From Squalus acanthias (taxonomy: Eukaryota), in assembly GCA_030390025.1 (NCBI GenBank), contig CM059431.1, positions 136,588,001 to 136,652,000 of the forward strand: a DNA stretch of 64,000 bases. The letters run 5' to 3'. The notes under the pieces are model-generated. The model did not search any database. It was not told where the DNA came from and saw only the letters and a list, made by a program, of their open reading frames with translations. Shown here piece by piece: positions 38,284 to 51,800 of the stretch (its first letter is position 1; each line of letters opens with the position of its first letter). The position numbers and the translations under genes were made by a program.

Positions 38284-39270
38284 CATAGAGTTATAGAGTA
38301 ATAACGGCACAAAAGGAGGCCCTTCGGCCCATCGTGTCCGTGCTGGCTCTCTTCAGAGCGTCGAGCCAGTCCCATTCCCCCGACCTATCCCCGTAGCCCG
38401 GCAAGTTTATTTCCCTCAAGTGCCTATCCAGTCTCCCCTTGAAAACATTGAGTGTCTCCGCTTCCAACACTTCCGTCGGCAGCGAGTTCCAGGTCGTCAA
38501 CACTCGCTGCGTAAAAAAGTTTTCCCTCCCATCCCCAGTGTATCTCTTGCCCAAAACTTTAATTCTGTGTCACTTAGTCTTTGTACCATCAACTAGTGGG
38601 AACAGCCATTCTCCATCTAACCTATCCAAACTCGTCATAATCTTGTACACCTCTATCAAATCACCTCTCAACCTCTTTGCTCCAATGGAAACAAATCCAG
38701 CTTCTCCAACCTATCCTTATAGTTAAGATCCCCCATCCCCGGAACCATTCAGGCAAATCTCCTCTGACCCCTCTCAAGGGCCTTCACATCCTTCCTAAAG
38801 TCTGGTGGCCAGAATTGGACGCAATACTCCAGCGCTTTATATAGATTCAGCAAAACTTCTCTACTTTTGTACTCAATATCTCTATTTATGAAACACAAGA
38901 TCCCATATGCTTTGCAAAGCACTCTCTCAATATGTCCTGCCACCTTCAGGGATCTATGCACATTAATTCGCTTCATCGATCCTCCCTGTTACTTCATCAA
39001 AAAATGCAATTAGATTGGTCAAACATGATCTGCCTTGTACAAATCCGTGTTGGCTCTGATTAATTAGCTTAAACCTCTCCAATTGCCAGTTAATTTTATC
39101 CTTGATTATTGTTTCTAAAACTTTCCCCACCACTGATGTTAAACTGACCGGCCTGTAGTTACTAGGATTGTCCTTAGAACCTTTCTGGTTCAATGGTGTC
39201 ACATTTGCCACTTTCCAATCCTCAGGCACCTCCCCCGCATCTAGGGAAGATTGGAAAATTATGGCAAGTG
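38284..39270 (-). mobile_element. 5'-truncated, internally deleted CR1-clade LINE of a different subfamily
   Basis: Minus-strand frames give IFQSSLDAGEVPEDWKVANVTP..NYRPVSLTS..QHGFVQGRSCLTNL, then VHRSLKV..EYCVQFW, then NFFTQRVLTTWNSLP. The 3' tail is CTCTATAACTCTATG. The segment containing YLDF and FADD is missing. Confidence 0.93.
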
Positions 39271-40662
39271 TGTGGGAAGAAAAATGAACTGCCACAAACC
39301 GGTGAATGAAGAGCGAGACATGGACACTAAACTGCCTCTAACCGGGGAATGCAGAGTCAGAAATGGAGAATTAAATGTCTCTAACTGGGGACTGAAGTGT
39401 CAGACATGGAGTTTTAAATGTCTCTAACTGGTGACTGAAGTGTGAGACATGGACACTAAACTGTCTCAAACCGGGGACTGCAGAGTCAGAAATGGAGAAT
39501 TAAAAGTCTGTAACCGGGGACTGCAGAGTCAGAAATGAAGAATTAAATGTCTCTAACTGGGGACTGAAGTGTGAGACAGGGAGAATGAACTGTCTCTAAG
39601 AGGGGACTGAAGAGTGAGACATGGAGAACAAACTGTCTCTAACTGGGTAGTTAAGAGCGAGACATGGAGAATGAACTGTCTCTAACCGGGGAATGAAGTG
39701 CGTCACAGGAAGAATGAATTGTCTCAAAATGGGGACTGAAGAGTGAGACATGGAGAATGAACTGTCTCTAACCGGGGGCTGAAGAGTGAGACGTGGAGAA
39801 TGAACTATCTCTAACCGCGGGCTGAAGAGTGAGACATGGAGAATGAAGTGTCTCTAACCGGGGAATGAAGTGCGACACAGGAAGAATGAATTGTCTCAAA
39901 CCGGGGACTGAAGAGTGAGACGTGGAGAATGAACTGTCTCTAATCGGGGACTGAAGAGCGAGACATGGAGAATGAACTGTCTCTCACCGGGGACTGAAGA
40001 GTGAGACGTGGAGAATGAACTGTCTCTAACCGCGGGCTAAAGAGTGAGACATGGAGAATGAACTGTCTCTAACCGGGGAATGAAGTGCGACACAGGAAGA
40101 ATGAATTGTCTCAAACCGGGGACTGAAGGATGAGAAATGGAGAACGAACTGTCTCTAATCGGGGACTGAAGAGTGAGACATGGAGAATGAACTGTCTCTA
40201 ACCGGGGATAGAAGAGCGAGTCATGGAGAATGAACTGCCTCAAACCGGGGACTGAAGAGTGAGACATGGAGAATTAACTGTCTCTAAACGGGGACTGAAG
40301 AGAGAGACATGGAGAATGAACTGTCTCTAATCGGGGACTGAAGAGTGAGACATGGAGAATGAACTGTCTCTAACCAGGGAATGAATTGCGAGACATGGAG
40401 AATGACCTGCCTCTGAACGGGGACTGAAGAGCGAGACATGGTGAATGAACTGTGTCTAACCGGTGACTGAAGAGTGAGACATGGAGAATGAACTGTCTCT
40501 AACTGGGGACTGAAGGTTGAGACATGAAGAATGAACTGCCTCTAACCGGGGACTGAAGAGTGAGACATGGAGAATGAACTGTCTCTAACCGGGGACTGAA
40601 GAGCGAGACATGGAGAATCAGCTGTCTCTATCCGGGGACTGAAGAGAGAGACATGGAGAAAG

Positions 40663-41832
40663 TGTAGGCTTCGCTAAATCCCCCAGAAACTCGAACAGAG
40701 TCCTAAAGGGAGTGATTTTTGGACTTTTCATACAAACTTGGGATGATGGGGCCTAAGTGAGTGATTTGATGTAAAAACCTAAATATCAGGGTAGAAAAAA
40801 CCTGAGGAAACTGATTTTTTTGAATCTTACTGTTGGGAGAGTCACCGTTCACAGACACAAGCTGGGAGGGCCGTGGCCGGGCAGTGAACAAATCAAGCTG
40901 TCTGGGAATTGTTTACACTACAAATCCTACCCAGGTGCAAGAGACAAAGCAAAAAGTCAAAAACACATCCCCAGGGGCAAACAAGATGCTGGAAACCTAA
41001 AAACGATTCAATGACAATATAACTTCGATCACACAGTTTCATAGCCATTATCCCATCAAAAAAAACAACCAACTAGGTACCCTCAGAACAGATTTAAAAG
41101 CCCGCCAATAAACCTAGGATAATAGGGTGGAGATTTGGCGCGTAGATAAGGCTGTGTTTAAATCGGAAAACGATCAAGGCATGTTTAACACTGAGCAAAA
41201 ACCATCGGAACTGGCAAGCCCGCCAAAAACTAGACAATTGGACGAAGCAAGGTTCATTTTGCAAACAAAAGGAATTTGTTTTAGTAAGTGTTTTTTAGGC
41301 GCGAAAAGAAACAGTATAATTTGGAAGCCTGTGCCATAATCTCTCTCTCTTTCGGACTGGCTGACGACGCGGACACAGCTCTCTCCCTACTCCAGCAAAA
41401 CCTACCACAAGCCACGAGGAAGAAGGCCAGCACACAAGAAGGCACCTGAGCGACTGTCTGAGTGACCAACAGACACCTCGCAGCAACAAGGGCCTTACGG
41501 AGTCTTTTTAAACAAAAGACTCTATTATCCTGTCAAGAATTCGTTGGTGAGCATTATCCCTGATCACCTGAAACCAAAAGCCTAGCCGGATAGTGGGATC
41601 TTTGGGAGGGATAAGGTTTTGTATGATATATTGTCATTTCCCTCGCTTGTACCGTGTGTTCCCCGAATCTGTGTTTAAGTAATAAGTGTGTTTCAAGTTT
41701 GTTACCTTTTGCTTTTAATAAAGTAAAATTCTTTCATCAGAACCTGTTTACTGCAATTTTGTTCACAACCCCTAAATAAGTCCAAAGTCTAGGAACCGGA
41801 GGGGTGTGGGAGCGATTATGATACCCCCTACA
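40663..41832 (+). repeat. 5' LTR (1170 bp)
   Basis: Begins TGTAGG and ends CCTACA (6-bp terminal inverted repeat). Direct repeat of 47704-48885. AATAAA at 41717-41722. Confidence 0.95.
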
Positions 41833-41836
41833 TAAA

Positions 41837-41854
41837 TGACGACCGCGGCAGGAC
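41837..41854 (+). promoter_or_regulatory. Primer binding site, tRNA-Arg(UCG)-type
   Basis: TGACGACCGCGGCAGGAC lies 4 nt after the LTR. It matches 17/18 to TGGCGACCGCGGCAGGAC, the complement of the 3' end of vertebrate tRNA-Arg-TCG (recalled from memory). Confidence 0.85.
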
Positions 41855-41907
41855 TTTGGCGAAAGGGTTGTGAAGTAGTAAATGGTGGTTTTGAGTTGAG
41901 AACAAAA

Positions 41908-43659
41908 ATGGAAGAGAGAATGTCATCCTATGTATATAAAAAAGTAAATATCACCAAGAAATGGGTCCTCAGGCTGTTGCATGCTGAACGTCCTATGGAC
42001 GCTGCAGCTGCCTGGGCTGAGAGCAAGGAATACAATAAGTCTGTGCAGAAAGCCATATGGTTGGTCTGCTCCCACAAACAAATGCAGCTTATGGGGAAGC
42101 GCATTCAGGCTCTCACAGAAGAGCTAAAGGAAGAGAGCCAACTGTCCCGTGCCAGAGCAAAAGCAGGGGATAGGTTGTCAGCAGAGCTCGGCACAAAAGA
42201 TCAGGAACAGTCACAGATGCTGGAGGAACACCGTGCCAGTAAGGGATACCTCCAGTGTCAGGCCACCGAGGCCAAAAGTAGTGAACTGGCATTGCGGGAA
42301 GAGAACATCCGCCTTGCCAACCAATTAAGGGAACTCACAGAGAAGTGAAACGATGTTAAGGCAGCCTACAGAGTAGCCAGTACAAGGGAGTTTGAGGTAG
42401 GGGACCACGGCTCCTGTCAGAAGCAGATTGAGAGTCTGAACCTTGCTCTGTCCAAGACAAAAGGCATGTCGTGCCTGATAAGCCCGGGTGCGGCCCAAGC
42501 AGACCTGGAGGAGCAGGAGGAGACTGTTCGACTACCACGTGTGGCGCCAAGGAGAAGCTTGGTTAGGCAGCAGGAGGGGCAGACAATCTGTGAGGCTGAC
42601 AGGGAGTGCACACCAGCACCTGTGGCGCCGAGTTTTGACTCGGTCTGGCAACAGGGAGAGGGGGGCGAACCGATGCAGGAGAAGTCGGAGCCAGGGCCAA
42701 TGTGCCCAGCACGACAGCAAAAATTCGGCCCGCCCGCCGGTGGTGGAGGTCAGGGACCCCTTGAAAGTCAATTCTTGGCTCCCCACGTTACACAACAGCT
42801 TAGGGCTATGGTAAGCCACCTGAGTAAACTTACCCAAAAGGAAAACCCCTCAGTCCACTTCATGGAGGTGGAGCAATCAGCAGGCCTCAACCATTTTGAC
42901 GATGCCGAAATGGCAAAATTGCTCCTGTTCTCATTAGATGGCAAATTGTACCAGTCACTCTCGACTGAGAGCAAGAGAGGACAGAACGGATATGCTGCCG
43001 TCAGGGAGGAAGTTTTAGAGGCCATGGGAATGAATGAGGGAAGGCCTTTCTCCCGGATGGAGGAAACAGTGCAGCTCGCAGGGGACACCCCACAGGCTTT
43101 CGCAGGCAGGCTGTGGCCGGTGTACAGGGGTGCTTGTAATGGGGCTCTCGACAGGGCTAACCTGAACAGGGACGAGCTGGCCCACTGGCTCCGTAGCCTA
43201 GTGGCAAACAGCTTGCCACGAGTCAAAGCCAAGGCTGAGCTTTGGTTTGACCCAAGTGAGCCCCGGGTCACCGAGGAGGCAGTGGTCAGGCAACTGACCC
43301 TAGCCTACCGGAACGGTAGGGGAGCTGAAGACACCCCACCGAAAGGGAAGGTGCATGAGATAAAGCCCAGTCAGGATAAGAAGGAGTGGCACCAGGAAGG
43401 TGGTAAACCTTCCGACACGAAGCGTAACTGCTTCGGGTGCGGGAAGAGGGGGCATTGGAGAAAGGACTGTAGAAATCCCTGGAAGGATATGCTAACAAAG
43501 AATTCCCCAGCTTTCGCCCCAAAAGAAGAGGCACCGACCTCTTCCCCCACACTGGACACAATAGTAGCGGCCATCAGAGTCCTGCTTGGTGGCCCAGGGA
43601 AGTTAGCTACAGCCACTGGCGCATTCATTCCATCTGCCCCCCCTAAAGCAGACCTATGA
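41908..43659 (+). pseudogene. gag: Gag polyprotein (~583 codons) with N-terminal coiled coil and C-terminal CCHC zinc knuckle; one in-frame stop
   Basis: ORFs 41836-42348 and 42466-43659 share one frame, separated only by TGA at 42346-42348. AAAATGG start context at 41908. CFGCGKRGHWRKDC at 43429-43470. Confidence 0.88.
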
Positions 43660-44614
43660 CTAGAACCAGCGCAGGCTGTCTACCTGTGTTCCCCGGGATA
43701 CGATGTTAAGAAGGGGGTGGAGAATGTTGGGGAGATGTTTGGTGGACACCGGAGCTGCCAGCACGGTGGTCCATTCAGAAGACCTGACCAATTCACCCAG
43801 GTTTAACGGGGTCCCCTACAGTTTAATGGGAATCAAAGGGAACGAGCAGGCTGGGGCAATGTCCAAACGTTTGGACATAGATTTAGGATCCCTCCATACC
43901 ACGTGAGAGGGTAACCAAAAGGCGGACAAGTTGGCCAAGCATGGGGCCAGGGAAGGAGAGTTATGGGATCCCTATAAAGCAGGCCCGGTAGCTGCAATCC
44001 GGGACAAGGGAGGCACACAGGGGGTAGATTTGCCCCCGGACTTAAAGCAGGTCCAAGCCCAGAATCACGTCTTTAAGGCCAGCCTGGTAAAGAGAGAGAG
44101 TGGGGAGTCCCTAGAAGTTCCGTTCAGGGCAGAGGACGCGATTTTTAAACAGGTTCACTGGCAAGCAGCCAGTAACCTGGGGATTTTGTACTAGAAAAAT
44201 GGGCTGCTGTTAGAACCCCAGAGAACCCACGAGTGGGAGATTGACCAATGCAAACTGCTTAAACCTAAAAGGGAACAGCCGGCAAAGGTGGACTGCCCCC
44301 AAGTTAGAAATCGTCAGCCAGCCGCAGCTGTGGCAGACGCACAAGGTGAAGCGGGACGGACAGTGTGTTGTCTCACAGGAGAGAACACTCCACCGCTTAT
44401 GTGGGTCTCAAGCACACCCCCAGTGGCCAGAGCCCTAGAAGGTCTCCACGCACACCACAGCAAAGGCTACTGTGGCCACAGGTGTATCTGTTTCGAGGGT
44501 CCCACCCAAAGAGGGTTGCAATCCGAAGAAGAGCGCCCAAGAGCAGGGAGCGTTCTAAAGTTCGGGATTCCCAGCCTACAGCCTCCAACATTGAGGTTTT
44601 CACAGGAGAGGTAG
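43660..44614 (+). pseudogene. pol: Deleted pro-pol: retropepsin protease, RNase H C-terminal helix, probable integrase-flanking remnants; no RT, no DDE core
   Basis: CLVDTGAASTVV (DTG at 43745-43753). After TGA at 43904-43906 the same frame reads EGNQKADKLAKHGA. No YxDD, HHCC or DDE motif seen. Confidence 0.8.
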
Positions 44615-45033
44615 TACTGGGAGAAGAGAGAGAGAATGGTCCCCCACCTGCAGCCTCAGGCTGGGAGGAGCCCACAGATATGAACGAGGGTGCTGCAGCC
44701 ACAACAAAGGGGGTAGTGTGCGGCAGCACAGGACGCAGCTGGGATGTTAAGATACCCCCAGCGGTTTTGAGGAAGGCCTTCTGGGTTCGGCGGTACAGGC
44801 CGCACTACACCCAGGTGTACAAGCCATCCAGAGGCCACATAAGGCAGAGACTAAACAGGATTTAACCTGGCCATCCGAAGACGGGCGGCAAATGTACAGA
44901 ACTTTCGGTTTTAAGTAATTGCAGTTTTGGTGGTTATGGGTTATCATTAGTTTAGTTGTTTGTAGAGTTTTTTTTAAGTTTAAGGGCTTGATTAATGATC
45001 CAGCCAGAGAACCTTTCTGGGACATGGATATAT

Positions 45034-45067: not shown

Positions 45068-47419
45068 ATGACAAGGTTTCTGCTCCTGCTCGCCCTGGTA
45101 GGGGTGAGCATCGGTGACCGAGGTGACGTGGAGGACTCCCACATCTATGGGTGCTCAGGAGTGAGAGCACCAGTCGTCACCGCAGGGGGTGGCGAGCGGG
45201 GAGTGGAGGAGCTCGCCATATACTTCCACGAGGGAAGGTGGCCAGGGTGGCTGGGGTCCAACTCTACTAAATACTCCAACCAGCCCGGGTTCACGTACGG
45301 GGAGGCCTCCCTCCCATGCCCCAGAATACAGGTCGTTGCCACAAGGGTCAGTGTCACCGAGGGGAAGCGTGTGTGCCTTACCTGTAAGGGACGAATTCCC
45401 CTGAATAGGTGGTGGTGGCTCAGGAAGCTGAGCAGGGACGCAGGGGACCATACAGCCGACTGGGAAAGATTAGGGAACGACACCCACCGGACAATCACAG
45501 GGACCCAGGGAGGAGTGAGTGTTTGTTGGGATAAGTGGTGGGAGTCGGAACAGGGAGTCTATGTTTGTATGTGGGGATCAGAGGAAGCCTGACCACAGGG
45601 GTATCCATCATCTTCTCCAGCCAATGGCAGGATGCCGGGGAGGGGATAGGGTGGGATTCTAGCCTGCATAGGTGCGTGGTCCCACACATTCCGGTCCCAG
45701 TTAATGCCACTGAACTCGTGGCACACACCCGAAAGCCCCTATCCACGACCCAGGTACCGAAAACCCTGGAAGAAGAGTGCCCTACCACCACTAAGGGACA
45801 AGGGAATGGGTTAGTCCTAGTACCAACCGAAAAGGTAATATACCAGGGGGTACACTATGCAGTAGCTTCAGTAATATTAAACCTCACCGAGGTATACTTA
45901 CCTGAGTGATGTCCTAAGGAGACGGAGCAACTGTACCAGGCCCTGCTAAAGGAAATGTTTAGGAAATGTTACGAATTTGATTTTGCCAATATAGACAAAG
46001 TAGAGCTATACAGAATACAACCTGAGAACCCTATGGGCACGGGTAGACAAAGAAGGGGAGCCTGGAATGATGTCTTCACTGCCTATAGTGCAGGGTCCTC
46101 TGTAATAAATAGCCTGGATGACATGGAATTACAGACACAGATAAATGTTTTAAAAACCCAGTTAAGAAAGATCCTGAAGTATGGGAACACCGTGGTAGGC
46201 TCAGAACTACATGAGGACCAAGCTATGACGGTTAATTTAAAGGAAATTATTGCAGAATTGGAAAGGCATGCCAAAACAGTAAATGCACTCATACGGGAGG
46301 ATAGGAATGCATCGGATCAGGCTGCACAGAATGAGGTGTGTGTGCTGTACGAGGCATGGTAGCTGGGCGAGGGCCGTAGCAACCTGGAGGATTTAAAGCA
46401 AGGTTTAGTCCCCTCCTGGATCAGCAACAAGCACCTTGCAGCCCTCCACCCGTTTAGTAATTCGCTGAGCCCATGCCAATTTCGTTTAGCCTCTGAAGCC
46501 TACCCTGTCCCAATAGATTGTGGGCGTTCAAATCACACTATCATGGGGATAGTAGTGAGAATGCCGGTCATGAATGGGACAGCCCGACCCGTACCGGTAT
46601 ACAGGGTGGAGAACATTGGAGTCATTCAAGGGGGTGCACAAATCCGTTTTACAGCGGTCCCACCTTATGTCATAAAGTGGGAGCACGCCATCACAGGTAC
46701 TGACCTCTCCGGGTGCGGAGCCGGGGTTCACACATAATACTGTGTCCCCAGCACTTGAACGCCTATTCCAAACCACAGTGCGGGTTTAAAGCTGCTGGCG
46801 CACGACTTATCAATTTTACCATGGAGGTGATGGCACACGGCCATTTTCCCCACAGGTAGCATATATAGGGGGTGGGACATATTGTGTCACCACAGGTGCG
46901 TCCCACTACCAGCATGGACACTTCTGGTGTCCGGTAAGTGACAGCAGTTTCTGCTTTAAACCCGAGGCAGAAGTTCAAGTGGCCCAGGAACGGATTGTGC
47001 CCATTTCTGAACCCTACACTGTTCACCTCACTGTAACAGAAAACATCACCAACCTGCAAAAGTATGTGACTTACTTTGGATGTAAAATTCCCCCTCTACC
47101 CAACATCTTACCACCCTACTTAAAGCTGTAGAGATTTCAAAAAAAACATTTCTACACCCTGGAACAGAAAACAGTTGTAATAGCGGCAGAGATTTTGGAT
47201 ATAGTAGTTCCACCCTGGTGGGATATTTTCGAGAATAAAGAGGTGCCTTCCTGGATCAGGATGGCTTTCCATCTTTTGGTGGTCTGCCAGCTCGGGATAA
47301 TTCTCTACCTGCTGTGTACAAAGTGCAGGGGAAGGGACGAGGAGCTCCGCTTCAGACACGAAGGGACTTGGGGAGTGCATCAAAATAAAGGCTATGGCCA
47401 GGGATGGAACGAACCTTGA
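45068..47419 (+). pseudogene. env: Envelope glycoprotein, class I F-type fusion protein with N-terminal Ig-like domain; several stops and frameshifts
   Basis: Signal peptide MTRFLLLLALVGVSIG. Furin site RQRR (46045-46056) followed by GAWNDVFTAYSAGSSVINS and a heptad-like helix. Cys-rich region, NxT/S sequons, and membrane-proximal PPWWDIF. TM segment MAFHLLVVCQLGIILYLLC (~47261-47317). Confidence 0.85.
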
Positions 47420-47703: not shown

Positions 47704-48885
47704 TGTAGGCTTCGCAAAATCCCCCAGAAACTCGAACAGAGCCCTAAAGGGAGTGATTTTTGGACTTTCAATACAAACTTGGGATGATGGGGCCTAAGTG
47801 AAGTGAATTGATGTAAAAACCTAAAGATCAGGGTAGAAAAAACCTGGGGAAACTGATTTTTTTGAATCTTACTGTTGGGAGAGACACCTTTCACAGACAC
47901 AAGCTGCGAGGGGCGTGGCCGGGCAGTGAACAAATCAAGCTGTCTGGGAATTGTTTACACTAAAAATCCTACCCAGGTGCAAGAGACAAAGCAAAAACTC
48001 ACAAACACATTCAAATATGAATCCCAGGGGCAAACAAAAACTGGAAATCTAAAAACGATTCAATGACAATATAACTTCGATCACACAGTTTCACAGCCAT
48101 TATCCCATCAAAAAAACAATCAACCGGGTATCCACAGAACAGATTTAAATGCCCGCCAACAGACCTAGAACAATAGGGTGGAGATTTGGCACGTAGATAA
48201 GGCTGTGTTTAAATCGGAAAACGATCAAACCATGTTTAACACTGAGCAAAAACCATCGGAACTGGAAAGCCCGCCAAAAACTAGACAATTGGACGAAGCA
48301 AGGTTGATTTTGCAAATAAAAGGAATTCGTTTTAGGAAGGGATATTTGGGCGCAAAAAAGAAACAGTATAATTTGAAAGCCTGTGCCATAATCTCTCTCT
48401 CTTTCGGAAAGTGCTGACGACGTGGACACAGCTCTCACGCTGCTCCAGCAAAACCTACCACAAGCCACGAGGAAGAAGGCCAGCACGCAAGAAGAAACCA
48501 GAGCGACTGTCTGAGTGACCATCAGACACCTCGCAGCAACAAGGGCCTTACGGAGTCTTTTTAAACAAAAGACTCTAATACCCTGACAAGTATTCGTTGT
48601 TGAGCATTATCCCTGATCTCCTGAAACCAAAAACCTAGCCAGATAGTGGGATCTTTGGGAGGGATAAGGTTTTGTTTGATATATTGTCATTTCCCTCGCT
48701 TGTACCGTGTGTTCCCCGAATCTGTGTTTAAATAATAAGTGTGTTTCAAGTTTGTTACTTTTTGCTTTTAATGAAGTAAAATTCTTTCATCAGAACCTGT
48801 TTACTGCAATTTTGTTCACAACCCGTAAATAAGTCCAAAGTCTAGGAACCGGAGGGGTGTGGGAGCGATTAAGATACCCCTTACA
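47704..48885 (+). repeat. 3' LTR (1182 bp)
   Basis: TGTAGG...CTTACA. Colinear with the 5' LTR, with scattered substitutions and an ~11-bp indel near 48010. Confidence 0.95.
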
Positions 48886-51800
48886 TCTGTACAGCCCCAT
48901 CCTATTACCCATCTCTGTATAGTCCCATCCTATTATCCATGGCAGTACGGCCCCATCCTTTTAAACATCTCTGTACGGCCCCATCCTATTACCCATCTCC
49001 GTATGGCCCCATCCTATTACCCATCTCTGTACGGCCCCATCCTATTACCCATCTCTGTACAGCCCCATCCTATTACCCATCTCTGTACGGCCCCATCCTA
49101 TTACCCATCTCTGTACGGCCCCACCCTATTACCCATCTCTGTACGGTCCCATCCTATTGCCCATCTCTGTATGGCCCCATCCTATTACCCATCTCTGTAC
49201 GGCACGATCTTATTACCCATCTCTGTACGGCCCCATCCTATTACCCATCTCTGTACGGTCCCATCCTATTACAAATCTCTGTATGGCCCAATCATATTCC
49301 CCATCTCTGTACGGCCCCATCCTATTCCCCATCTCTGTACAGCCCCATCCTATTACCCATCTCTGTATGGCCCCATCCTGTTACCCGTCTCTGTACGGCC
49401 CCATCGTATTACCATCTCCGTACGGCCCACCCTATTACCCATCTCTGTACGGCCCCATCCTATTACCCATCTCAGTACGGCCCAATCCTGTTACCCATCT
49501 CATTGGACCCATCCTATTACCCATCTCTTTGGGTCCCATCCTGTTACCCATCTCTGTTCGGCCCCATCCTTTTACCCTTCATTGTACGGCTCCATCCTAT
49601 TACACATCTCTGTGCTTCCCAATCCTATTACCCCTCTCTGTACGCCCCATCCTATCACCAATCTCTGTACTGCCCCATCCTATTAGCCATCTCTGTACGG
49701 CCCCATCCTATTACCCATCTCTGTACAGCCTATCCTATCACCAATCTCTCTACTGCCCCATCCTATTATCCATCTCTGTACGGCCCCATCCTATTACCCA
49801 TCTCTGTACGGCCCCATCCTATTACCCATCTCTGTACGGCCCCACCCTATTACCCATCTCTGTACGGCCCCATCCTATTACCCATCACTGTACGGCCCCA
49901 TCCTATTACCCATCTCTGTACGGCCCCATCCTATTACCCATCTCTGTACAGCCTATCCTATCACCAATCTCTGTACTGCCCCATCCTATTACCCATCTCT
50001 GTACGGCCCCATCATATTACCCATCTCTGTACGTCCCCATCCTATTACCCATCTCTGTACAGCACCACCCTATTACCCATCTCTGTATGGCCCCATCCTA
50101 TTACCCAACTCTGTATGGTCCCATCCTACTACCCATCTCTGTACAGCCCCATCCTATGACCCATCTCTGTATGGCCCCATCCTATTACCCATCTCTGTAC
50201 GGCCCGATCCTATTACCCAACTCTATATGGCCCCACCCTGTTACCCATCTCTGTATGGCCCCATCCTATTACCCATCTCTGTACGGCCACATCCTATTAC
50301 CCATCTCTGTACGCCCCATCCTATTACCCATCTCTTTACGGCCCATCCTATTACACATCTCTTTACGGTCCCATCCTATTGCCCATCTCTGTACGGCCCC
50401 ATCCTATTACCCATCTCTGTACGGCCCCATCCTATTACCCATCTCTGTACGGCCCCACCCTATTACCCATCTCTGTACGGCCCCATCCTATTACCCATCT
50501 CTGTATGGCCCCATCCTATTACCCATCTCTGTAAGGCCACATCCTATTACCCATCTCTGTACGCCCCATCCTATTACCCATCTCTTTACGGCCCATCCTA
50601 TTACACATCTCTTTACGGTCCCATCCTATTGCCCATCTCTGTACGGCCCAATCCTATCACCAATCTCTGTGCGGCCCCATCCTATTACCCATCTCTGTAC
50701 AGCCGATCCTATCACCAATCTCTGTACTGCCCCATCCCATTACCCATCTCTGTACGGCCCCATCATATTACCCATCTCTGTACGTCCCCATCCTATTACC
50801 CATCTCTGTACAGCACCACCCTATTACCCATCTCTGTATGGCCCCATCCTATTACCCAACTCTGTATGGTCCCATCCTACTACCCATCTCTGTACAGCCC
50901 CATCCTATTACCCATCTCTGTATGGCCCCATCCTATTACCCATCTCTGTACGGCCCGATCCTATTACCCAACTCTATACTGCCCCACCCTGTTACCCATC
51001 TCTGTATGGCCCCATCCTATTACCCATCTCTGTAAGGCCCCATCCTATTACCCATCTCTGTACGCCCCATCCTATTACCCATCTCTATACGGCCCATCCT
51101 ATTACACATCTCTTTACGGTCCCAGCCTATAGCTCATCTCTGTACGGCCCCATTCTATTACCCATCTCTGTACGGCCCCATCCTATTACCCATCTATGTA
51201 CAGCCCCATCCTATTACCCATCTCTGTACAGCCCCATCCTATTACCCATCTCTGTACGGCCCCATCCTATTACCCATCTCTGTACGGCCCCATCCTATTA
51301 CCCATCTCTGTACAGCCTATCCTATCACCAATCTCTGTACTGCCCCATCCTATTACCCATCTCTGTACGGCCCCATCATATTACCCATCTCTGTACGTCC
51401 CCATCCTATTACCCATCTCTGTACAGCACCACCCTATTACCCATCTCTGTATGGCCCCATCCTATTACCCAACTCTGTATGGTCCCATCCTACTACCCAT
51501 CTCTGTACAGCCCCATCCTATTACCCATCTCTGTATGGCCCCATCCTATTACCCATCTCTGTACGGCCCGATCCTATTACCCAACTCTATATGGCCCCAC
51601 CCTGTTACCCATCTCTGTATGGCCCCATCCTATTACCCATCTCTGTAAGGCCCCATCCTATTACCCATCTCTGTACGCCCCATCCTATTACCCATCTCTT
51701 TACGGCCCATCCTATTGCACATCTCTTTACGGTCCCATCCTATTGCCCATCTCTGTACGGCCCCATCCTATTACCCATCTCTGTACGGCCCCATCCTATT

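Follow-up and report, generated by a model that had tools for sequence, protein, structure and literature searches.

The window analysed here is a 64,000-nucleotide (nt) stretch of the genome of Squalus acanthias (assembly GCA_030390025.1, contig CM059431.1, positions 136,588,001 to 136,652,000 of the forward strand). Between window positions 40663 and 48886 lies an element with two long terminal repeats (LTRs), gag, a protease remnant and a broken envelope gene, env (45068–47419), all on the forward strand. The element belongs to an abundant endogenous retrovirus (ERV) family, of which this copy is dead. The env gene is the subject of this study. In intact copies of the family a signal peptide, a predicted immunoglobulin (Ig)-like domain, a linker and a core with the modelled fold of the paramyxo- and pneumovirus fusion protein (F) form a single open reading frame (ORF) of 784 amino acids (aa).

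In the window copy, the frame that opens with the ATG at 45068 starts with MTRFLLLLALVGVSIG, runs on through RVSVTEGKRVCLTCKGRIPLNRWWWLRK and GVSVCWDKWWESEQGVYVCMWGSEEA, and ends after 174 codons at a stop (45590–45592). A one-base frame shift falls within the same few bases, and the protein resumes in an ORF at 45535–45909 that encodes GVSIIFSS, a Pro/Thr-rich stretch and GLVLVPTEKVIY, the start of the F-like part. Further stops lie at 45907–45909, 46360–46362 and 47129–47131, together with a second frame shift at about 46737–46790.

Read across these breaks, the gene begins with the start and a signal peptide predicted by hydrophobic character only (residues 1–16, 45068–45115), followed by a conserved 67-residue N-terminal segment (residues 17–83, 45116–45316) with Cys29 and the adjoining Cys84, in which R57, P59, L62, G63, N65, S66, S70, F75, Y77 and C84 are invariant among nine homologues. 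The Ig-like domain itself (residues 84–187, 45317–45627) carries Cys106 (45383), Trp117 and Cys167 (45566) and is split by the 45590–45592 stop and the frame shift, its last strand, GVSIIFSS (45598–45621), lying beyond the break in the other frame. The linker (residues 188–237, 45628–45777), read in the frame of 45535–45909, includes Cys203 and an N-A-T sequon. From a conserved CPxxxxGPxxGLV motif, where the alignment to remote Envs starts, the equivalent of F2 (45778–46044) extends over the in-frame stop at 45907–45909 to RQRR (46045–46056, residues 327–330 of the intact form), a probable furin cleavage site at whose position remote homologues align an R-x-[KR]-R site. The F1 equivalent (46057–47419), delimited from the ORF list and the model, comprises a fusion peptide, a long heptad helix, beta-rich head domains, a second helix, a membrane anchor (47252–47317) and a tail. 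An earlier note, made from the letters of this sequence alone, had read an Ig pattern here with two cysteines 61 codons apart; both stand where it placed them, the extent found (about 45317–45627) hardly departs from its 45320–45620, and the linker it described is indeed Pro/Thr-rich, modelled at low confidence and less constrained.

The 174-aa N-terminus was searched against the 3.7-Gb genome with tblastn, which flagged 5786 candidates, 150 of them scored, and the copy counts given here are lower bounds. All 150 scored matches had E of 6e-110 or less and 93–100% identity, corresponding to at least 150 near-identical genomic copies. Open frames of at least 262 codons, which extend past the start of the fusion core, were present in 132 of the 150, frames of at least 790 codons in 14, and frames of exactly 808 codons in eight. 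Five retrieved copies encode an uninterrupted 784-aa Env from an MTRF start (the open frames of L036, 870 aa, and L037, 832 aa, were trimmed to the tblastn-matched stretches of 778 and 772 aa, which need not be the Env lengths). Thirty loci were examined for the start; leaving out three with no recognisable start motif, 21 of the 27 readable loci run from Met1 beyond residue 238 and into the F core. The stop after codon 174 is confined to one of the 27, the window itself; another copy is frame-shifted a few codons later. Skate and Logan-assembly homologues (P0004, P0008, P0066) are continuous across the position of the break, and contigs from four sequencing runs, which have no bearing on transcription, cover env and bridge the junction between the Ig-like and F-like parts (1953-nt contig, L031 1323–2964). 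No RNA run was listed as containing the sequence. The proposal that less-decayed copies might keep signal peptide, Ig and F parts in one ORF is thus borne out.

Contigs of runs X1 and X3 join L031 position 3185 to 2964, omitting 220 nt with the env start codon and the signal peptide. On the env strand the skip has no canonical splice sites at its ends; a deletion variant or an artefact could account for it.

Residues 84–187 very probably adopt an Ig-like fold, judging from sequence profiles and predicted structures. The Pfam family Ig_3 (PF13927) aligns to residues 85–167 over profile positions 2–74 of 78 with an E-value of 0.0014, and a sub-threshold match to it recurs in seven of nine homologues (best E 0.0027), the remaining two being truncated. 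When the profile of the nine homologues was compared by hhalign with a profile of 30 Ig_3 domains from the same host genome, 71 columns aligned at E 5.1e-4, in a register that sets Cys106 as the B-strand cysteine, Trp117 as the C-strand tryptophan and E-Q-G-V-Y-V-C as the F-strand motif. C106 and C167, a candidate disulfide pair, are 61 residues apart, a spacing within the typical range of about 55–75. W116 and W117 are invariant in all nine homologues and C167 is kept in the seven that reach it, while C106 is replaced in one of nine.

Two AlphaFold2 models were made, one of residues 1–300 (18 alignment rows) and one of the full-length protein (43 rows). In the full-length model residues 84–187 form a beta-sandwich with a predicted local distance difference test score (pLDDT) of 56–77 per 10-residue block over residues 101–170 and eight strands (87–91, 102–107, 115–120, 132–134, 141–146, 149–154, 163–169 and 177–183). 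This predicted model, of moderate confidence, has the two sheets, the strand number (seven to nine) and the topology of an Ig domain; together with the sub-threshold Ig_3 match, it is what the Pfam and AlphaFold check proposed in the earlier note returned. VIA-align was run against 48,161 representative chains, for which the stated background is a best Z of 7–8, falling to 4–5 at rank 50. Among the 50 matches listed, 47 lie inside residues 30–189, with Z of 8.7–10.1 and a root-mean-square deviation of 2.1–3.4 Å over 82–104 residues, and rank 50 still has a Z of 8.7, above that background. They include 5fm5_P, a myomesin/obscurin-like Ig, NCAM2 Ig1, a shark UrIg2 V domain, a titin Ig, a T-cell receptor (TCR) V domain, CD8, CD79b, BTLA and nectin-1. 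With the low-confidence model of residues 1–300, all 50 matches listed by Foldseek were antibody or TCR V domains or complexes with them (E 3.9e-3 to 2.4e-2, none at or below 0.001). In the ESM Atlas, residues 17–260 scored at best 0.79, and the Ig families at 0.78–0.79 are at chance level, since one shuffled protein in three attains 0.8.

The remainder of Env is predicted to have the paramyxo/pneumovirus F fold. In the Foldseek search of the Protein Data Bank (PDB) with the full-length model, the top match was F of human parainfluenza virus 3 (1ztm, E 5.9e-11), with post-fusion F of respiratory syncytial virus (3rki), Langya virus F (8tve) and F of Newcastle disease virus (3maw) also among the best, at 9–15% identity. 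At least 500 PDB chains matched at E up to 0.001, and every match listed was an F protein; by VIA-align, 3maw reached a Z of 11.2 across residues 245–714. The model shows domains I–III, a long heptad helix (349–444), a second one (679–710) and a membrane helix (729–757) as C-terminal anchor, with RQRR (327–330) ahead of the fusion peptide. At the level of sequence, no Pfam family, PF00523 included, matched the 784-aa Env at E up to 0.01, PF00523 found no match at E up to 1 in five remote full-length relatives, and a 21-row full-length profile compared with PDB sequences gave five weak coiled-coil matches and no F chain. F has an Ig-like domain II of its own according to the available part of PMC11468914; all Ig matches of VIA-align map to the N-terminal module, separate from domain II.

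A second env subfamily in the same genome (L039–L048) has 59–65% identity to the first in the N-terminal part and 72–74% in the core. Ratios of nonsynonymous to synonymous divergence (dN/dS) were estimated by the Nei–Gojobori method between subfamilies A and B, with one copy per subfamily and three partners. Roughly, they amount to 0.07–0.09 in the Ig segment (codons 85–197), 0.15–0.18 in the preceding segment (codons 17–84), 0.34–0.37 in the linker (codons 198–244) and about 1.1 in the signal peptide, the Ig segment being the most constrained part of the N-terminal half of Env. Within subfamily A, dN/dS for the whole env ranges from 0.17 to 0.73; that of the Ig segment is 0.11–0.15 in five of six pairs, and 1.37 in the sixth, a value based on six changes. 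These ratios, which the earlier note had proposed computing, point to strong purifying selection on the Ig-like module during the diversification of the family, as expected for a working part of Env.

Between L031 and L036, synonymous divergence is 0.16 in codons 17–187 and 0.40–0.56 from codon 188 onwards. A jump of this kind, close to where the Ig-like domain ends, has the look of a recombination event between env lineages.

Comparison of the whole Env by phmmer with 1.84 billion representatives returned 48 proteins, none of them a host protein of the Ig superfamily (IgSF). Eight matches (P0003, P0004, P0008, P0010, P0015, P0023, P0024 and P0033) cover the N-terminal part, and as they also align over the flanks outside the Ig-like domain, they represent the same env and not host IgSF genes. 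Their sources include Pristiophorus, Rhinoraja and Rhincodon, and some are embedded in chimeric gene models. The module is found at 53–70% identity in ERV env copies named from Pristiophorus and Rhinoraja, while a truncated homologue from Rhincodon (P0015) has 56% identity over 60% of the query. Given this conservation in other elasmobranch ERVs, any capture of the domain would be old.

Host gene models of Pristiophorus and Heterodontus also hold pieces of env (P0003, P0005, P0012 and P0039, annotated as a zinc-finger protein, Niban 1-like, cadherin-related 5-like and an fbxo15 isoform). These models are probably annotation chimeras, and env fragments in the annotated gene models of other elasmobranchs matter for genome annotation.

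Taken globally, the analysis leads us to favour, as rather more probable than its rivals, a reading in which the Ig-superfamily-like sandwich is integral to the N-terminal subunit of Env and does the job of the retroviral surface subunit (SU). A retrovirus has one surface gene, and the F-type machine found here comes with no separate attachment protein, so that the Ig-like module is likely the attachment part. The intact chain runs from the signal peptide through the 67-residue segment, the Ig-like domain, the linker and the F2-like strands to RQRR, and then through the fusion peptide and heptad helix, the heads and the second heptad helix to the anchor. Mechanistically, the module and its conserved flank would recognise a molecule on the cell surface. 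Once furin has cut the chain, the module would stay joined to F1 via the F2 strands of the N-terminal subunit, and receptor binding would in this way be coupled to the release of the metastable fusion core. By analogy, the N-terminal subunit is the attachment part in other retroviruses (SU) and, according to the available part of PMC11468914, in foamy virus Env, with its receptor-binding domain.

Several results weigh against this proposal, some of them concerning function and others the fold on which it builds. We infer receptor binding from the architecture, and since the Env model is a monomer of post-fusion-like shape, the position of the Ig-like domain on the trimer cannot be deduced from it. 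The very low dN/dS of the Ig segment is unlike that of many receptor-binding domains engaged in arms races and would fit a structural or regulatory role equally well; moreover, between-subfamily dS is saturated (1.6–2.2, with dN 0.14–0.16), which makes those ratios rough. As for the fold, the Ig_3 match scores 19.5 bits against a curated cut-off of 30, so the domain is classed as Ig-like by fold and not as a member of Pfam Ig_3. The hhalign probability to the host Ig_3 domains is 31%, the N-terminal profile had no match among PDB sequences at E up to 10, the first AlphaFold2 model (residues 1–300) is untrustworthy at a mean pLDDT of 42.8, and the flank 1–88 and the linker region 184–232 are modelled at pLDDT below 50. 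With every sequence score below threshold, an empty PDB profile search, Atlas scores within the range of shuffled proteins, moderate AlphaFold2 confidence and a crowd of antibodies in the PDB that attracts any sandwich, it could be argued that a Cys/Trp-rich viral segment of some other beta-rich fold shows the V-x-V-x-E-G / W / G-x-Y-x-C pattern by chance. We consider this improbable: four independent kinds of test agree on the register and the hallmark residues, the VIA-align Z has not dropped to background by rank 50, the matches span non-antibody I-set and V-set domains and not antigen-binding fragments alone, and homologues retain Cys167 (7/7) and W116/W117 (9/9).

The other rivals accept the domain and differ on its place, origin or task. 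That the Ig-like part is made as a secreted accessory protein of its own, with F starting independently downstream, was the conclusion the earlier note would have drawn from a stop at 45590 in all copies, and the window frame does end there after 174 codons. The sister copies refute it, however: among readable loci only the window has the stop and 21 of 27 read into the F core, the open frame reaches 790 codons or more at 14 of 150 matches, the break sits inside the domain ahead of its last strand, the homologues P0004, P0008 and P0066 are uninterrupted there, and neither a Met nor a signal peptide precedes the start of F2. We have accordingly rejected an accessory ORF, whose chances are negligible. 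That this ERV lineage recently captured an IgSF exon from its host is hardly more credible, even though retroviruses do transduce host sequence and Ig_3 exons abound in the host genome (3883 candidates, with all 150 that were scored being matches). The domain had previously been called captured and a search for its closest host IgSF gene proposed, but a host donor finds no support: the 48 phmmer matches hold no host IgSF relative, even the nearest match to a host Ig profile is distant, at 30% identity across 71 columns, and the module is common to the env copies of Pristiophorus and Rhinoraja and to P0015 of Rhincodon. Somewhat better placed, yet still unlikely, is a module that belongs to Env but does not bind a receptor, and that serves as a cap or stabiliser of the metastable pre-fusion F head, as its shield against antibodies or as a modulator of host immunity while the F core attaches, as pneumovirus F can itself do. 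The purifying selection on the Ig segment suits a structural role, the conserved 17–83 segment and the flanking cysteines C29, C84, C175 and C203 suggest a larger packed unit, and the Atlas leads include a poxvirus soluble interferon receptor with Ig domains, at the chance-level score of 0.78. On the other hand, we see no sign of the module contacting the F head, the linker is long, modelled as disordered and better suited to a tethered binding domain, and no sequence similarity to any immune receptor was found among the 48 phmmer matches.

Remote full-length Envs (P0013, P0014, P0020, P0035 and P0044), from sources that include Mustelus, Chiloscyllium and two frogs, align to the query only from residues 216–236, at the CPxxxxGPxxGLV motif; the named hosts of the matches looked up are sharks, a skate and frogs. 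The N-terminal parts of these remote Envs look Ig-like by eye, those of the frog proteins P0020 and P0044 by eye only. P0035 matched the host Ig_3 profile by hhalign with E 8.4e-5 and a probability of 61%, and Pfam V-set with E 0.045, while P0014, from Chiloscyllium, bears the UniRef name 'Ig-like domain-containing protein'. Against the same host profile, P0014, P0020 and P0044 aligned over only 11–19 columns at probabilities of 1–4% and P0013 not at all, and the alignment of our N-terminal profile to P0014, P0035 and P0020 was limited to the start of the F core. It is a tentative idea, more doubtful than probable, that an N-terminal Ig-like module would be a general and possibly ancestral feature of the F-type Envs of shark and frog ERVs, a built-in attachment domain replacing a partner protein. 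Were it true, such Envs would fill a gap between Mononegavirales F and foamy virus Env, and perhaps epsilonretrovirus Env as well, as the intermediate so far missing.

The closest relatives of the Pol of this family, at 47–51% identity, come from frogs and coelacanth and are unnamed or 'NYNRIN-like' proteins; relatives with an integrase C-terminal domain of murine leukaemia virus type and plant Ty3/gypsy elements both stand at about 30–35%. The sister copies L079 and L080 have the order LTR-gag-pol-env with a dual RNase H (tether plus RNase H), and on these two grounds, the dual RNase H and the frog and coelacanth Pol relatives, the element is a candidate member of the lokiretroviruses. In the available part of PMC7947760 (Wang and Han 2020), frogs and coelacanth are among the host groups listed for lokiretroviruses, dual RNase H is described, and lokiretrovirus Env is reported to be similar to Pfam PF00523 and related to Mononegavirales F. 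The same text gives lokiretroviruses the order LTR-gag-pol-env and their Env a signal peptide, a basic cleavage site, a fusion peptide, a coiled coil and a membrane anchor, all shared with the present element. Unlike lokiretrovirus Env, the present one has no PF00523 match and resembles F by fold only. The Env model in the part of PMC7947760 available to us names no N-terminal domain, and that text makes no mention of immunoglobulin or Ig-like domains, nor of cartilaginous fish, sharks or Chondrichthyes; the accessible text of the follow-up (PMC9040795) likewise has no mention of immunoglobulin, Ig-like or cartilaginous. Lokiretroviruses and cartilaginous fish were nowhere linked in the accessible parts of the literature searched, and the present family would extend F-type ERVs to cartilaginous fishes.

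Foamy virus Env offers the nearest parallel in design: in the available part of PMC11468914 it is described as a retroviral F-like core of domains I, II and III with its own receptor-binding domain in the N-terminal subunit, the same plan of an additional domain on that subunit as here. The foamy receptor-binding domain, however, is characterised in that text as a previously unidentified fold, nested and not Ig-like. A feline foamy virus gp130 model is among the matches in BFVD (E 2.6e-6), and foamy Env has a leader peptide, unlike the present Env. Foamy virus Gag is not known to carry a CCHC zinc knuckle, whereas the Gag of the present family has one (above the Pfam cut-off in L038, L079 and L080). 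Paramyxo- and pneumovirus F proteins have a short F2 and are not known to carry an extra N-terminal domain, and paramyxovirus F works with a separate attachment protein. With these proteins (1ztm, 3rki, 3maw, 8tve) the present Env shares the core fold over residues 245–714, the basic site before the fusion peptide, two heptad helices and the C-terminal anchor, at 9–15% identity and with no match at the level of sequence. In gammaretroviral SU, too, a receptor-binding domain built as a beta-sandwich stands at the N-terminus, ahead of a proline-rich linker; the fusion subunit there is of gamma and not F type, and no gammaretroviral SU receptor-binding domain appears among the 50 VIA-align matches listed.

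Searching BFVD with the model of P0002 gave A0A384ZVF2 (928 aa, E 1.7e-16) as best match, and walleye epidermal hyperplasia virus 1 supplied the second with its Env (E 2.8e-15); both rank ahead of any paramyxovirus F, and glycoproteins of arli-, lispi- and chu-like viruses and baculovirus F come next. The Env of walleye dermal sarcoma virus, a second epsilonretrovirus, is 13th (E 2.4e-10). The two walleye virus Envs align over about 900 columns but are much longer (1317 and 1159 aa), and their TM-scores are low (0.10–0.21). From this ranking, epsilonretrovirus Env may be F-like too.

Retroviral Envs of F type have been published, and so have F-like ones that bring a binding domain of their own; what sets the present Env apart is the N-terminal Ig-like module. 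No description of such a module on an F-type retroviral Env was found in the accessible main texts of the literature searched, and the sole prior trace we met is the automatic UniRef name of the shark relative P0014. Class I fusion proteins of the F type are usually described as bare fusion machines that rely on a partner or on their own head; here the F-type core is joined to a recognisable domain of cell-adhesion type, in a retroviral family with many open env frames. Such an Ig-F Env could serve as a simple natural model for the coupling of receptor binding to the triggering of F, and it bears on the kinship of retroviral, foamy-virus and Mononegavirales fusion proteins.

The provirus around the window env is bounded by a 5' LTR at 40663–41833 (recognised by local alignment to 47704–48886 and by repeat families D9–D11) and a 3' LTR at 47704–48886, each about 1.17 kb long. 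They share 94.2% identity (1101 matches, 68 mismatches and 16 gap nt); the 68 differences at 1169 aligned sites, a Jukes–Cantor distance of 0.061, indicate an old insertion. No target-site duplication is evident at the LTR boundaries found. The gag region (41836–43659) consists of two adjoining open frames in the same frame (41836–42348 and 42349–43659) with one stop between them. Its zf-CCHC match (E 0.0026, 18.2 bits) is below the cut-off of 20.8, which is exceeded by the sister gags of L038 (24.1 bits), L079 (21.2) and L080 (21.0). A protease remnant follows at 43664–43906 (RVP, E 0.0097, 16.6 bits, below cut-off), and the Pfam scan found no reverse transcriptase (RT) or integrase family in window positions 43907–44614. 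The sister copies L079 and L080 encode, besides a protease, RVT_1, RT_RNaseH_2/RT_RNaseH, RNase_H, Integrase_H2C2 and rve.

The family comes in two forms. Eighteen of the 30 loci, including the window and L010/L038, have the window-type upstream structure and no RT or integrase. Homology to the window ends at 44244 in 11 of the 30, and both of those that were extended carry a full pol; L020 breaks from window homology at 44678. Uninterrupted env frames are found in the pol-carrying and the pol-deleted forms alike, which suggests that pol-deleted copies spread with help in trans. In two pol-deleted copies, the window (42346–42348) and L038 (5431–5433), a single in-frame stop at an identical boundary parts an upstream, coiled-coil-looking frame from the CCHC gag frame; a defect common to both copies and a read-through stop are both conceivable.

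Satellite arrays flank the provirus. The upstream one is a 43-nt tandem repeat (window 39223–40726); the downstream one, built of a 28-nt repeat, extends from 48774 to beyond 53300 and yields very long spurious open frames (PSYYPSLYGPILLPISVRPHPITHLCTA).

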